Shown piece by piece: positions 34,614-46,600 of a stretch of 64,000 bases of DNA. Numbering within the stretch: the stretch's first letter is position 1; each line of letters begins with the position of its first letter. Source of the stretch: Escherichia coli (GTDB lineage: Bacteria > Pseudomonadota > Gammaproteobacteria > Enterobacterales > Enterobacteriaceae); the NCBI RefSeq assembly GCF_050920415.1, contig NZ_CP169309.1; one strand, written 5' to 3'. The position numbers were made by a program.

Positions 34614-37600
34614 TACAAAGTATTGTGAATTCAAAAAATTGCGATTCCCTTGTAGGCCTGATAAGCGTAGCGCATCAGGCACTTGTGCCCCGAACGTTGA
34701 ATGAATTGTGGTTCTTATGTCCGAAACAAAAAACGAACTTGAAGACCTGCTGGAAAAAGCAGCAACTGAACCGGCGCACCGTCCGGCCTTTTTCCGTACT
34801 CTACTGGGATCCACCGTCTGGGTGCCTGGTACGGCGGCGCAGGGCGAGGCTGTGGTTGAAGATAGCGCGCTTGATTTACAGCACTGGGAAAAAGAAGACG
34901 GCACCAGCGTCATTCCTTTTTTCACCTCGTTAGAAGCACTTCAACAGGCGGTTGAAGACGAACAGGCATTTGTCGTAATGCCCGTTCGCACATTGTTTGA
35001 GATGACCCTTGGCGAAACGCTCTTCCTTAATGCCAAACTGCCAACCGGTAAAGAATTTATGCCGCGTGAAATCAGTTTGCTGATTGGTGAAGAAGGGAAT
35101 CCGCTGAGCAGTCAGGAAGTACTGGAAGGCGGTGAATCGCTGATATTATCGGAGGTTGCAGAGCCGCCAGCGCAAATGATTGATTCACTTACCACCTTAT
35201 TTAAAACCATTAAGCCGGTGAAGCGTGCTTTTATTTGTTCAATTAAAGAGAACGAAGAGGCACAGCCTAATTTACTTATTGGCATTGAAGCCGATGGTGA
35301 TATCGAAGAAATTATTCAGGCGGCGGGAAGTGTAGCGACCGATACATTACCTGGCGATGAACCCATCGATATTTGTCAGGTGAAAAAAGGGGAAAAAGGA
35401 ATTAGCCACTTTATTACCGAACATATTGCGCCATTCTATGAACGTCGCTGGGGGGGATTCCTGCGTGATTTTAAACAGAATCGAATAATTTAAAATATGC
35501 CGCCCCAAAGGGCGGCATTCGGGCTTACTTGCTGTTCTGAAGGTTGTTAACCATCAGTAAATTGTTGCCGGAGGGACTCCGGTTATTATTTACCTCGGTT
35601 AACAGCGCACCAGAAACAATAAGTACGATACAGAAGTACCGTATCTTCATTGTGCGGTCCATGCGAAGACCGCATCACGACAGCACCACTGGCGATATTG
35701 CCGCGATAGCAAGCGCTGTGGGGTGCCTGCATTTACGGTCATGGAACATCCTTTCCTAAAGCCAGCGCCCGTTTGCGAGACGGCGAAAAGGGCCGTCACG
35801 AATAATACCCTCATATTTGAATAATTACTCTATTTATTATCTTGACTTAGCCAGGCATAAAAGAGAGTATTTCAACACTGTGGGGTGCCTGCGTTGCTCC
35901 GGCAACACAAGTCAACCTGCTGGAAAGGCCGCGAACCAGACCAGCAATAAAAAACCGCCAAATTCGGCGGTTTTTTATTGCCTGTAAAAAGCTTATTTCT
36001 CTGGCTCAACCGGTAAATCGGCCCGTGCGCCCCATTCACTCCATGCGCCGTCGTACAGTTTCACGTTTGGCACATCCAGCGTCGCGAGTGCTAACAAAAC
36101 CACGGCTGCCGTTACACCAGAACCGCAACTGACGATAATTGGTTTGTCGTAGCTGACACCGCGACCAAAAAATATCGCATCCAGTTCATCGGTCGTTTTT
36201 AGTTCGCCTTCACGTACCAGTTCTGTCCACGGAACGTTCAACGCGCCGGGAATGTGCCCGCGACGTAAACCTGGGCGAGGTTCATCAACTTCTGCATTAA
36301 AACGTGCAGCCGGGCGGGCATCAATAATTTGCGCCGTATTTTCATGGCTTGCCAATAACACATCGGTTACTTTCACCACAGCCTCAGGATTAAACGCAGC
36401 GTTAAACTCACCTTCTCGCAGCGCTACTGCACCTTCTTCTAATAACAGATCATCACGCTGCCAACCTGCAAGTCCACCACCCAGAATCGACACTTTCTCT
36501 ACACCAAAGGTGCGCAGCATCCACCATGCGCGTGGGGCTGAGAAAAGATTACCTTCGTCATAGACAATCAGGTGCTTATCCTGGTTAACGCCTAACTCAC
36601 GCATTGCAACGGCGAACGTTTCCGGGCGCGGCAGCATGTGCGGAAGCGGGGAATTGTGATCAGAAAGCGCTTCGATATCGAAAAACACTGCGCCGGGAAT
36701 ATGTCCATTCAGATACTCCTGGGCAACGTTACGATCTTCCTGTCCAGGCGGTGCCATGCGGGCATCGATAATCTGAATTTCCGGGTCATCAATATGTTCG
36801 GCGAGCCAGTCGGCTCCTACAAACCATGTCGTGGACATAGGCATCTCCATTTTTGCCGGGTTAGGCTAAATTGTCGGATGTTTAGTGAAAAGCGACAAGC
36901 AAAAGAGGCTAATTTGGCTGTCTGAGCCACAATTCTCACTAAAATTCGGATTCCATGGGCACGATACTGAATTACATAACGTAAATTCTCACGCATAATA
37001 ATTATTCGACGTTGCTAACGGGCCATTGTGGCAGGGATGAAAAATGAAAAAGTTACGCGTAGCCGCCTGCATGCTAATGCTGGCGCTGGCAGGGTGCGAC
37101 AACAACGATAACGCGCCAACAGCGGTGAAAAAAGATGCACCTTCTGAAGTTACTAAAGCGGCATCTTCAAAAAACGCGAGTTCAGCAAAACTCTCTGCAC
37201 CGGAGAGACAAAAACTGGCACAACAGAGTGCCGGTAAGGCGCTGACATTGCTGGATCTCTCTGAAGTCCAACTCGATGGCGCAGCCACGCTGGTGCTGAC
37301 CTTCTCTATCCCTCTCGACCCGGATCAGGATTTCTCGCGCGTTATTCACGTCGTCGATAAAAAAAGCGGCAAAGTGGATGGGGCCTGGGAGCTGTCAGAT
37401 AATCTTAAAGAGCTGCGTTTATGCCACCTCGAGCCGAAACGTGATTTGATCGTTACTATTGGCAAGGAGGTCAAGGCACTCAACAACGCAACCTTCAGTA
37501 AAGATTACGAAAAAACTATAACTACCCGCGATATCCAGCCCAGCGTCGGTTTTGCCAGCCGTGGTTCGCTGCTGCCTGGAAAAGTCATTGAAGGGCTGCC

Positions 37601-43600: not shown

Positions 43601-46600
43601 TGGGATCTGGACTGGCAGACCGGACGGTACGCCCGTTGTCGGTCAGTTTGGCTTTGCCAGCGCCGTACCGCTGTTGAATCAGGTCAATAATATCTTACTG
43701 TCGCGCAGTGCGAATCTGCCGGAAGACCCGCGTCCTGATTCTGTAAGCCGTGGCGTTATCTGCTGGCCGGGTGGGCAATCATTGCCAGAAGGTGACAGTA
43801 ATTGCCGCCGACGTCTTGCCACCTGGTTGCTCGAAGGTAGCCAGCCACCAACATTACTTTTACCGGAGCAGGAAGGAATAAGTGGGATTCGTTTCCCCAT
43901 CTGGCTTGATGAGCAAGGTAAACGTGTTGCTGCTGATTGTCCTCAGGCTCGACAAGAAATGATTAATGTCTGGCCATTACCACTTGAACCCTGGCTACCT
44001 GCTGCTGAACGACGAGTAGCGCGCTTACCTGGGGCATCAACAAATTGCCCGCCGTATGGTCGTGATGCTCAGGTACCTTTACAGTTGATTGGTGTGCGTG
44101 ATGGCGTAATTATCAAACGTCTGCCAGGAGCTACTGATGCGTCATTACCAGTACAATTAAGCGGAGGAACAGGCGAACGCTGGTGGTTTCTTAATGGTGA
44201 ACCGTTAGCTGAACGCGGGCGTAACGTGACTCTGCATTTGACAGAGAAAGGCGATTATCAATTGCTGGTAATGGACGAAATGGGGCAGGTGGCGACAGTG
44301 AGATTTGTCATGCAGTAGTCTGTTTTGCTCATATTTGTTGCTTAAACTCGTTTTATTTTAAAAAAATGTTACCTTCATCAATAGTCAACGGCCTTGTTGC
44401 TCATTATAATCCGCGCCATCTCGTACGCTGGTACAGACAACAACAGAATAATTTACAGAGGTAAAAATGGCTATTGAACGTACTTTTTCCATCATCAAAC
44501 CGAACGCGGTAGCAAAAAACGTCATTGGCAATATCTTTGCGCGCTTTGAAGCTGCAGGGTTCAAAATTGTCGGCACCAAAATGCTGCACCTGACCGTTGA
44601 ACAGGCTCGTGGCTTTTATGCTGAACACGATGGAAAACCGTTCTTTGATGGTCTGGTTGAATTCATGACCTCTGGCCCGATCGTGGTTTCCGTGCTGGAA
44701 GGTGAAAACGCCGTTCAGCGTCACCGCGATCTGCTGGGCGCGACCAATCCGGCAAACGCACTGGCTGGTACTCTGCGTGCTGATTACGCTGACAGCCTGA
44801 CCGAAAACGGTACTCACGGTTCTGATTCCGTCGAATCTGCCGCTCGCGAAATCGCTTATTTCTTCGGCGAAGGTGAAGTGTGCTCGCGCACGCGTTAATA
44901 ATTTCGTAAATGCCGCGTGCAAACGTGGCATCCATGCGCCAGAATTTGTACAATGCAGCGCCCCCGGACGAGCAGCCGCTCACCGGGGCGTTTCTTTTTT
45001 CAACCCTCCAGGGGCCATAACGTGTAATAACGAGGCCGGAATAGCATATGTCTGAACAATTAGTCACACCTGAAAATGTCACCACGAAAGATGGAAAAAT
45101 CAACCTGCTGGATCTCAACCGTCAGCAGATGCGGGAGTTTTTTAAAGATTTAGGTGAAAAACCCTTCCGCGCCGATCAGGTGATGAAGTGGATGTATCAC
45201 TATTGCTGCGACAACTTTGATGAGATGACCGACATCAACAAAGTGTTGCGCGGCAAACTAAAAGAGGTGGCGGAAATCCGCGCACCGGAAGTGGTTGAAG
45301 AACAGCGTTCATCTGACGGCACCATTAAATGGGCGATTGCCGTTGGCGATCAGCGCGTCGAAACGGTGTATATCCCGGAAGACGACCGTGCCACGCTTTG
45401 CGTTTCCTCGCAGGTGGGGTGTGCGCTGGAGTGTAAATTCTGTTCCACCGCCCAGCAGGGCTTTAACCGCAATCTGCGGGTGTCGGAAATTATCGGCCAG
45501 GTGTGGCGTGCAGCGAAAATCGTTGGCGCAGCAAAAGTCACCGGTCAGCGCCCAATCACTAACGTAGTGATGATGGGTATGGGCGAGCCGCTGCTCAACC
45601 TGAACAATGTCGTTCCGGCGATGGAAATCATGCTCGATGATTTCGGTTTTGGTCTGTCTAAACGTCGCGTTACGCTCTCTACATCAGGCGTTGTTCCGGC
45701 GCTGGATAAACTGGGCGATATGATCGACGTAGCGCTGGCAATTTCCCTGCACGCGCCGAACGACGAAATTCGTGACGAAATTGTGCCGATCAACAAAAAG
45801 TACAATATCGAAACGTTCCTTGCTGCGGTGCGCCGCTATCTGGAGAAATCTAACGCCAATCAGGGCCGAGTCACTATTGAATACGTGATGCTTGATCACG
45901 TTAACGACGGCACTGAACACGCGCACCAACTGGCGGAGCTGCTGAAAGATACGCCGTGTAAGATCAACCTGATCCCGTGGAACCCGTTCCCTGGCGCGCC
46001 GTATGGACGCAGCTCAAACAGTCGTATCGACCGTTTCTCTAAAGTGCTGATGAGCTACGGTTTTACCACTATTGTGCGTAAAACTCGTGGTGATGATATC
46101 GATGCTGCCTGTGGTCAGTTGGCGGGCGATGTTATCGACCGTACGAAACGTACCCTGCGTAAACGAATGCAGGGTGAGGCCATCGACATTAAAGCGGTCT
46201 GATAGCCATTACGCCACGGTTACTTTATGTACCGTGGCGTAATCTTTTATGAATGAAGTATTAAGTTGCAATTGTCTGGTCAATATTAACGGTGCGTTTT
46301 TGCTGACTTTAAGGCAGTATGTAACGATGCAACAGTAAGTTAGCCTTAGTGAATGTGGGCTTTGTCACGAGCACACAGACGGTCTTATACTGTATGATAA
46401 CGGTTAACTTAACGGATGTTTCGCGGTGTGGGTGAGCATGATGGTTCACCGGCATCTCAATTCTCATTTAAACGTACCTGCAGCGAATGAATACTGAAGC
46501 CACGCACGACCAAAATGAAGCACTTACTACCGGCGCTCGCCTGCGTAATGCTCGCGAACAACTAGGACTTAGTCAGCAGGCCGTTGCTGAGCGACTTTGC

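Follow-up and report, generated by a model that had tools for sequence, protein, structure and literature searches.

The window analyzed here is a stretch of 64,000 nucleotides from Escherichia coli (contig NZ_CP169309.1 of the NCBI RefSeq assembly GCF_050920415.1), and its plus strand carries two adjoining genes, yfhM and pbpC. The first encodes ECAM, a bacterial alpha-2-macroglobulin (A2M), and the second encodes PBP1C, a class A penicillin-binding protein (PBP). This region is almost certainly the chromosomal yfhM-pbpC operon of E. coli: it is complete, bears the marks of purifying selection, and comes from a minority lineage whose identity to K-12 is about 95-96%. The finding is ordinary and already known: the locus belongs to the E. 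coli core genome, and publications cover the two genes, the way the thioester works and the solved structures.

The yfhM coding sequence occupies 37044-42005 (+) and specifies 1653 amino acids; pbpC (42006-44318, +; 770 amino acids) follows it without a gap, and both open reading frames begin with ATG. Neither contains an internal stop codon, and both have exactly the length of their K-12 counterparts. The chance that 1653 random codons would stay open is about 3e-35. In a megablast search with positions 36851-44466 as the query against 5426 complete E. coli genomes, the yfhM-pbpC stretch was found in all but one (5425/5426), always in the chromosome, and with at least 80% query coverage in 5423 of the 5426. 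A single genome, E. coli MFDS1022581 (NZ_CP169399.1), is 100% identical over the stretch. RefSeq labels the same DNA 'alpha2-macroglobulin' (yfhM) and 'peptidoglycan glycosyltransferase PbpC' (pbpC). An earlier reading of this DNA, made without database searches (the sequence-only reading), had named both genes in the same way and had described the locus as apparently intact. The names are correct according to the RefSeq annotation and to the end-to-end alignment of YfhM with three PDB entries (4rtd, 4ziq and 5a42; E = 0), the single alignment with 4rtd spanning residues 23-1653. The intactness is borne out by the lack of internal stops, the K-12 lengths and the presence of the motifs described below.

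YfhM is a type I (thioester) bacterial A2M, as indicated by Pfam, PDB, RefSeq and its identity to the K-12 protein. Eleven Pfam A2M domains were found above the gathering cut-offs, in the order bMG1, A2M_bMG2, bMG3, MG2, bMG5, bMG6, A2M_BRD, A2M, TED, CUB_A2MG and bMG10. A search of NCBIfam release 20 gave no family match for YfhM, so its membership rests on the Pfam and PDB matches. By the same token, the name 'alpha2-macroglobulin' assigned by PGAP must derive from a rule type other than NCBIfam.

The functional residues of the protein can be followed from the N-terminus to the C-terminus. The lipoprotein signal peptide (MKKLRVAACMLMLALAG), the lipidated Cys18 of the lipobox LAGC and Asp19 at position +2 together take up 37044-37100 (+) and are identical to those of K-12. 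Under the Lol sorting rule, Asp at +2 is a signal for retention in the inner membrane. ECAM is anchored in the inner membrane (PMC4498604), and the lipobox Cys has been named as a class feature of type I bacterial A2M (PMC3735191). The bait region, which is the protease-cleaved trigger, comprises residues 923-963 (RYGADIYDIYGQVIEGQGRLAALRFGGDGDELKRGGKPPVN; 39810-39932, +) and is also identical to K-12. Within it, Arg923-Leu942 is disordered, and Phe947-Asn963 binds the C-terminal macroglobulin (MG) domain, or CTMG, once the bait is cleaved (PMC4498604). The C-terminal MG domain itself (bMG10/CTMG; 41556-41954, +) was recognized by Pfam and by two motifs, RDDR (41823-41834, starting at residue 1594) and ESMY (41937-41948, starting at residue 1632), which keep the thioester domain locked and, at a later stage, bind the bait after its cleavage (PMC4498604).

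The thioester pocket YPYGCLEQ lies at residues 1183-1190 (40590-40613, +). In ECAM, Tyr1183 and Tyr1185 shield the bond, and Cys1187 and Gln1190 make the beta-cysteinyl-gamma-glutamyl thioester (PMC4498604). The sequence-only reading had placed the CLEQ motif at 40602-40613, and these coordinates are exact: the codons TGT CTG GAG CAA stand in frame, 1186 codons into the yfhM reading frame, and encode Cys1187-Leu-Glu-Gln1190, the sole CxEQ in YfhM. That reading had also suggested an alignment with characterised bacterial A2Ms. In such an alignment CLEQ falls on the thioester residues of the solved ECAM structures and is thus not a stray tetrapeptide. Its further statement, that the thioester is intact, holds for the motif and the protective pocket, both of which are visible in the DNA; the bond itself forms after translation and cannot be read from DNA.

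Every residue named as functional in the ECAM structure paper (PMC4498604) and in the MagD paper (PMC3735191) is present in YfhM. The position of CxEQ, the pocket and lock residues, the domain layout, the lipobox Cys and the adjacency to pbpC all agree with a type I A2M. For K-12 ECAM, the sensitivity of the thioester to methylamine and the formation of a covalent complex with protease have been shown (PMC3328433, PMC4498604). By homology, the same thioester mechanism should apply to the YfhM of the window, because the relevant residues are identical to those of K-12.

The second protein, PbpC, is assigned to PBP1C by Pfam, by K-12 identity and by the NCBIfam equivalogs, of which NF008414 (1546.9 bits against a cut-off of 1121) and TIGR02073 (903 against 494.2) were passed. 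It stays under the cut-offs of the PBP1A-family, MrcA and PBP1B models. An N-terminal membrane anchor at residues 10-28 (CWIALAAAPFLLFFAAWGA; 42033-42089, +; mean Kyte-Doolittle hydropathy 1.87) comes after the basic segment MPRLLTKRG. It is followed by the GT51 glycosyltransferase domain (Pfam Transgly, residues 60-226; 42183-42683, +), which contains the catalytic Glu84 of motif 1 within EDRWFWKHPG (42255-42284) and the motif GGSTLTMQ (42348-42371). The transpeptidase (penicillin-binding) domain (Pfam Transpeptidase, residues 305-520; 42918-43565, +) carries the penicillin-binding motifs Ser342-VLK (43029-43040), S396LN (43191-43199) and K511TG (43536-43544). At the C-terminus, residues 687-767 (44064-44306, +) form the BiPBP_C domain, an extra domain typical of PBP1C (PF06832, 61.4 bits against a cut-off of 26.8). 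The PDB copy searched held no PBP1C structure, and the best matches in it were PBP1A proteins.

One part of the canonical five-motif GT51 signature deviates in PbpC. Motif 1 is canonical. Motif 3 reads G136-K-I-R-Q140 (GKIRQ, 42411-42425) and not RKxxE, with Gln in place of the second conserved Glu. This segment was aligned to RKIKE of the Aquifex PBP1a structure 2oqo, and the K-12 PbpC carries the same residues as the window. Among the matches listed, 57 PbpC homologues found beside thioester A2Ms all keep Glu84 unchanged (57/57); the final position of motif 3 is Gln in 35 of these 57 listed homologues and Glu in 22, the latter mostly non-proteobacterial. Judging from this distribution, the glycosyltransferase domain is a PBP1C-type variant of GT51, and the change is a family trait and no defect of this allele.

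Taken together with the published work on ECAM, these features outline a putative course of events. YfhM would be exported, lipidated at Cys18 and held in the inner membrane by Asp19, as a monomer facing the periplasm. A protease reaching the periplasm would cut the disordered bait (residues 923-963), and the freed bait would displace the C-terminal MG domain, with its RDDR and ESMY motifs, from the thioester domain. The thioester between Cys1187 and Gln1190, normally shielded by Tyr1183 and Tyr1185, would then become exposed and may react with a surface lysine of the protease, which would be tethered inside the closing cage. The activation of K-12 ECAM by methylamine and by protease, its monomeric state, the covalent trapping by the thioester and the untethering of the bait have all been reported (PMC4498604, PMC3328433). 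PbpC is predicted to be a single-pass inner-membrane class A PBP that combines a GT51 glycan polymerase, a penicillin-binding domain of the transpeptidase type and BiPBP_C.

The sequence-only reading had combined these two proteins into a model of a periplasmic protease trap paired with a cell-wall repair enzyme. Budd et al. 2004 published this model as a hypothesis, and it is taken here in the form in which PMC4498604, PMC3328433 and PMC5764988 quote it. Biochemical and structural work has demonstrated the trap half; wall repair by PBP1C alongside the YfhM trap is a hypothesis only. A literature search found nothing further in newer work linking YfhM and PBP1C. The biological role of PBP1C beside the trap is a directly testable question.

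The association of the two genes is nevertheless widespread. One genome per species (GTDB r220) was scanned for DNA encoding YPYGCLEQT, which gave at least 120 loci in at least nine phyla, including Pseudomonadota, Bacteroidota, Verrucomicrobiota, Planctomycetota, Myxococcota, Desulfobacterota, Synergistota, Lentisphaerota, Poribacteria and others. The A2M stop codon lay inside the examined DNA in 91 loci, 13 were too short to judge, and 77 were informative. The counts that follow refer to the matches listed. In 63 of the 77 informative loci (82%), the A2M gene is directly followed on its own strand by a PbpC homologue, and 14 loci have at least 1500 nt downstream of the A2M gene with no PbpC homologue. 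Where enough sequence was available, 28 of 39 PbpC matches reach the PBP1C-specific C-terminal domain. About 19 of the 63 junctions fall within -8 to +10 nt, and ATGA overlaps recur in distant phyla. The two genes lie 0 or +1 nt apart in Escherichia, Citrobacter, Enterobacter, Superficieibacter and Pseudescherichia. These results reproduce, on independent data, the co-occurrence of A2M and pbpC reported by Budd et al. 2004, as quoted by citing papers. Their value is modest: across at least nine phyla, a thioester A2M followed by pbpC is the order in about 82% of the informative loci among the matches listed, and the junction is often, although not always, tight enough for reinitiation. Co-transcription of the A2M and pbpC genes looks general. 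Since the spacers vary, with about 19 of 63 tight, the gene pair does not require translational coupling, which would be a trait of some lineages, the Enterobacteriaceae included.

In the window, the junction between the two genes is as tight as it can be without an overlap. The sequence-only reading had noted that the pbpC ATG directly abuts the yfhM stop, and this is correct: positions 42000-42008 read ccg TAA ATG, so that the yfhM TAA (42003-42005) touches the pbpC ATG (42006-42008) in the hexamer TAAATG (42003-42008, +), with neither spacer nor overlap. No Shine-Dalgarno (SD) sequence was found within 22 nt upstream of pbpC. Its best anti-SD duplex in the region from -22 to -4 has a value of +0.4 kcal/mol, which places pbpC 33rd among the 34 annotated genes of the window; yfhM, with AGGGA, reaches -6.0. 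K-12, E. albertii, two Citrobacter species and three close E. coli genomes all share the junction AGACCGTAAATG without a change. Thus pbpC shows the hallmarks of termination-reinitiation, namely an abutting stop and start and no effective ribosome-binding site of its own.

Since pbpC lacks a ribosome-binding site of its own, ribosomes terminating on the yfhM TAA would most likely re-initiate at the adjacent pbpC ATG. Reinitiation would tie the synthesis of PBP1C, at a low ratio, to that of YfhM. Coupling is also the simplest explanation for the expression of a gene that lacks a ribosome-binding site. The circumstantial data make it reasonably probable that the translation of pbpC is coupled to that of yfhM. 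The sequence-only reading had called the genes translationally coupled outright. The junction, the missing SD and the conservation fit that statement; the coupling itself is inferred, and many taxa have spacers of 50-1200 nt. One further candidate element at the junction was considered and rejected. Positions 42027-42056 (+) contain a 12-bp GC-rich hairpin with a T-rich run, terminator-like and 21 nt inside pbpC; the corresponding bases could also pair in K-12 and E. albertii. As an occluder of the pbpC start it fails: the fold is not significant (for 41976-42075, z = -1.5, and 20 of 200 shuffles fold as well), and the ATG is left unpaired.

Several observations weigh against the locus being a coupled operon for trapping and repair. 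First, PBP1C has been described as having 'no known role ... under standard laboratory conditions', and it cannot replace PBP1A/1B (PMC7554673). Second, motif 3 of its GT51 domain is without the second conserved glutamate. Third, the two genes are separated by 48-176 nt in Yersinia, Photorhabdus, Proteus and Morganella, and by 28-1250 nt, mostly 400-1250 nt, in Pseudomonas. Fourth, genomic SELEX located an RpoE holoenzyme site inside yfhM, which could give pbpC a transcript of its own (PMC5493296). Finally, the promoter and terminator scans of the region, described below, were no better than chance.

Some of these points favor the possibility that the pair cooperates in another way than as a trap for foreign proteases plus a repair enzyme. 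YfhM might control endogenous or competitor-derived proteases in the periplasm, and PBP1C might serve as an additional glycosyltransferase under certain conditions, or might bind YfhM through its C-terminal domain as a partner or scaffold. The first and only phenotype reported for PBP1c is that, when overproduced, it supports LdtD-dependent incorporation/labelling (PMC6131605), which would suit such a role. Likewise, Neves et al. proposed a direct contact of PBP1c with the ECAM C-terminus and also suggested non-infectious contexts (PMC3328433), and the pairing extends to many free-living environmental phyla, beyond host-associated bacteria. The non-canonical motif 3 points the same way. On the other hand, ECAM traps the host-type proteases elastase and chymotrypsin in vitro (PMC4498604, PMC3328433), and the catalytic Glu84 and motifs 1, 2 and 4 are kept in the transglycosylase domain of all 57 homologues compared. 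A joint role of this other kind is possible, though less likely than not.

The close packing could also be just that, with pbpC translated independently, whether through weak initiation that needs no SD or from a transcript that starts internally, and with the abutting stop and start devoid of regulatory meaning. Junctions are tight in just about one third of the paired loci, among the matches listed, and the spacers of 48-1250 nt in Pseudomonas, Yersinia, Proteus and Hymenobacter are consistent with independent translation, as are the RpoE holoenzyme binding peak inside the K-12 yfhM (PMC5493296) and rodZ, a gene of the same window that is also without an SD and yet abuts no other gene. Against it, the anti-SD pairing of pbpC is the second-weakest of 34 genes, the exact TAAATG is kept from E. 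coli to Citrobacter, Enterobacter, Superficieibacter and Pseudescherichia have a spacer of +1, and ATGA overlaps (-4) are seen repeatedly in Verrucomicrobiota, Planctomycetota and Myxococcota. On this balance independent translation is doubtful, a shade more so than the other joint role discussed above, and coupling by reinitiation is preferred.

The window differs from K-12 along its whole compared length (19702-53448), where it is about 95-96% identical throughout; for the neighboring genes, the synonymous divergence (dS) is 0.08-0.37. The identity at the locus is bimodal among the 5426 complete E. coli genomes, with 18 genomes at 99% or more and 5407 at 90-95%. Because the whole window is just about 95-96% identical to K-12, the source appears to be a divergent minority lineage of E. 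coli near the species boundary (18 of the 5426). A divergence confined to the yfhM-pbpC locus as a whole can be rejected, given that the entire window shows it; the 3' end of pbpC alone stands out. Compared with K-12, yfhM has 97.7% amino acid identity and a ratio of nonsynonymous to synonymous divergence (dN/dS) of 0.042, and pbpC has 94.3% and 0.057, values that resemble those of the housekeeping neighbors. In comparison with E. albertii, dN/dS is 0.03-0.045 for the two genes. These ratios show that purifying selection maintains the locus, which is not in decay. The opposite view, that the locus is decaying in this divergent lineage and its open reading frames are intact by appearance alone, could cite the 3' third of pbpC, 75-85% identical to K-12, and the private R127C in YfhM, but it has next to no probability in the face of K-12 lengths, no frameshifts or stops, dN/dS of 0.04-0.06, a full set of catalytic and structural motifs, and alleles in the relatives that are intact too.

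The divergent 3' segment of pbpC begins at about 43340 and continues to the end of the gene (43340-44318), reaching the pbpC-ndk spacer. Over this segment the identity to K-12 is 75-85% in nucleotides, 51-67% at third positions and 81-93% in amino acids, whereas the flanks (yfhM, the 5' half of pbpC, and ndk) are 93-98% identical. The segment of about 1 kb takes in the last part of the transpeptidase domain along with the linker and BiPBP_C, and 27 of the 44 substitutions of PbpC relative to K-12 fall within residues 578-770. Its dS is 1.09, equal to the distance to E. albertii. Among the 5426 complete genomes, the last 819 bp of pbpC are at least 95% identical in 18 and about 82-83% identical in 5401, with none between. 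The 3' end of pbpC is probably a recombinant mosaic allele imported by recombination. No donor of the segment was found among the 120 loci examined, the best match being E. albertii at 81%.

The substitution R127C in YfhM (codon 37422-37424, in bMG1) gives the mature protein a third, free cysteine beside the lipidated Cys18 and the thioester Cys1187. Arg occupies this position in K-12, in E. albertii and Citrobacter, and in the three closest E. coli genomes that were compared, and Cys is private to the allele of the window. A different change was seen in a close relative, E. coli 2020CK-00188, where a 2-codon insertion (DN) at about residues 21-24 of YfhM gives CDNDNNDN in place of the CDNNDN of the window. 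This insertion lengthens the Asp/Asn-rich tether that directly follows the lipidated Cys, so the length of the tether varies within the lineage. Conceivably, the mosaic 3' end of pbpC and R127C could mean that one half of a defence pair has undergone a natural exchange of alleles, provided that the C-terminal region of PBP1C contacts YfhM or sets the target of PBP1C. A contact of the ECAM C-terminus with PBP1c was speculated on by Neves et al. (PMC3328433). We consider such an exchange improbable; if it were true, the 3' allele of pbpC would be a ready-made specificity swap experiment. R127C, the mosaic 3' end and GKIRQ leave the verdict on the locus unchanged.

The neighborhood is that of K-12: iscRSUA-hscBA-fdx-iscX, pepB, sseB, timP/ryfA, sseA (divergent), yfhM, pbpC, ndk, rlmN, rodZ, ispG and hisS. 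The order from sseA, transcribed away from yfhM, through pbpC and ndk to rlmN is colinear with K-12. The divergent intergenic region between sseA and yfhM (36851-37043) is 193 bp long. It contains a candidate sigma-70-like site at 36971-36999 (+), ATTACA-17-CATAAT, which matches at 9 of 12 positions and lies about 45 nt 5' of the yfhM ATG, and an SD-like AGGGA precedes this ATG. Across 36700-44600, promoter-like sites (8 against 7.5 expected) and terminator-like sites (12 against 9.4 expected) occur at the level of shuffled sequence. The same scan found no terminator-like site 3' of pbpC, a result that is uninformative given counts at chance level. Elsewhere in the window, Rfam matches above the gathering cut-offs were found for the ryfA small RNA (35492-35796, -), the iscRS stability element (28007-28116, +) and the sroE small RNA (48645-48736, +). 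The ryfA match overlaps timP, a toxin gene in the annotation of the identical genome. Positions 53449-64000 have no counterpart in the K-12 DNA compared. In NZ_CP169399.1 their counterpart, downstream of der and yfgJ, contains sinH (an intimin-like inverse autotransporter), a SinI-family gene and a frameshifted adhesion-domain gene.

Comparison with characterized systems places both proteins. The closest is the K-12 YfhM/ECAM (b2520; PDB 4RTD, 4ZIQ, 5A42, 4ZIU and 4ZJG), which has the same 1653 amino acids in length and 97.7% amino acid identity. The lipobox, bait, YPYGCLEQ, RDDR, ESMY, the neighbors and TAAATG are identical in the two. They are separated by 38 substitutions, R127C included, none of which affects a named functional residue. 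The A2M of Salmonella enterica, Sa-A2M (PDB 4U48, 4U4J and 4U59), is also type I, with the same 13-domain layout and the CTMG 'lock' on the thioester, and matches YfhM over its full length (3038 bits). It differs in being an orthologue from another genus, with 82% identity to ECAM (PMC4498604). More distantly, human alpha-2-macroglobulin, complement C3 and CD109 share with YfhM the MG domains, the bait-triggered conformational change and the CxEQ thioester, and YfhM gave weak but significant matches to the human thioester-containing proteins in PDB 7voo, 6tav and 9fx2. Activated ECAM resembles the methylamine-treated human A2M (PMC4498604). Unlike human A2M, to which it is about 12% identical (PMC4498604), the bacterial protein is a monomer that is anchored in the membrane as a lipoprotein, and it has ten MG domains. 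Type II bacterial A2Ms (P. aeruginosa MagD and the E. coli YfaS class) share the macroglobulin fold, the bait and the periplasmic, inner-membrane-associated location. However, they have neither CxEQ nor the lipobox Cys, and they belong to a six-gene mag-type operon and do not stand beside pbpC. As the YfhM of the window has CLEQ, the lipobox and an adjoining pbpC, it is type I and not type II.

For PbpC, the K-12 PBP1C (b2519; NF008414, TIGR02073) has the same 770 amino acids in length, the same three domains and the same motifs, GKIRQ included. The two differ in amino acid identity (94.3%) and in the last ~1 kb of DNA, which is 75-85% identical, about the distance of E. albertii from K-12. 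PBP1A, PBP1B and the glycosyltransferase domain of Aquifex PBP1a (2OQO) share the GT51 and transpeptidase layout with PbpC, and the glycosyltransferase domain aligns over its full length. PbpC differs from PBP1A/1B by the extra BiPBP_C domain and by Gly136 and Gln140 at the Arg and Glu positions of RKxxE.

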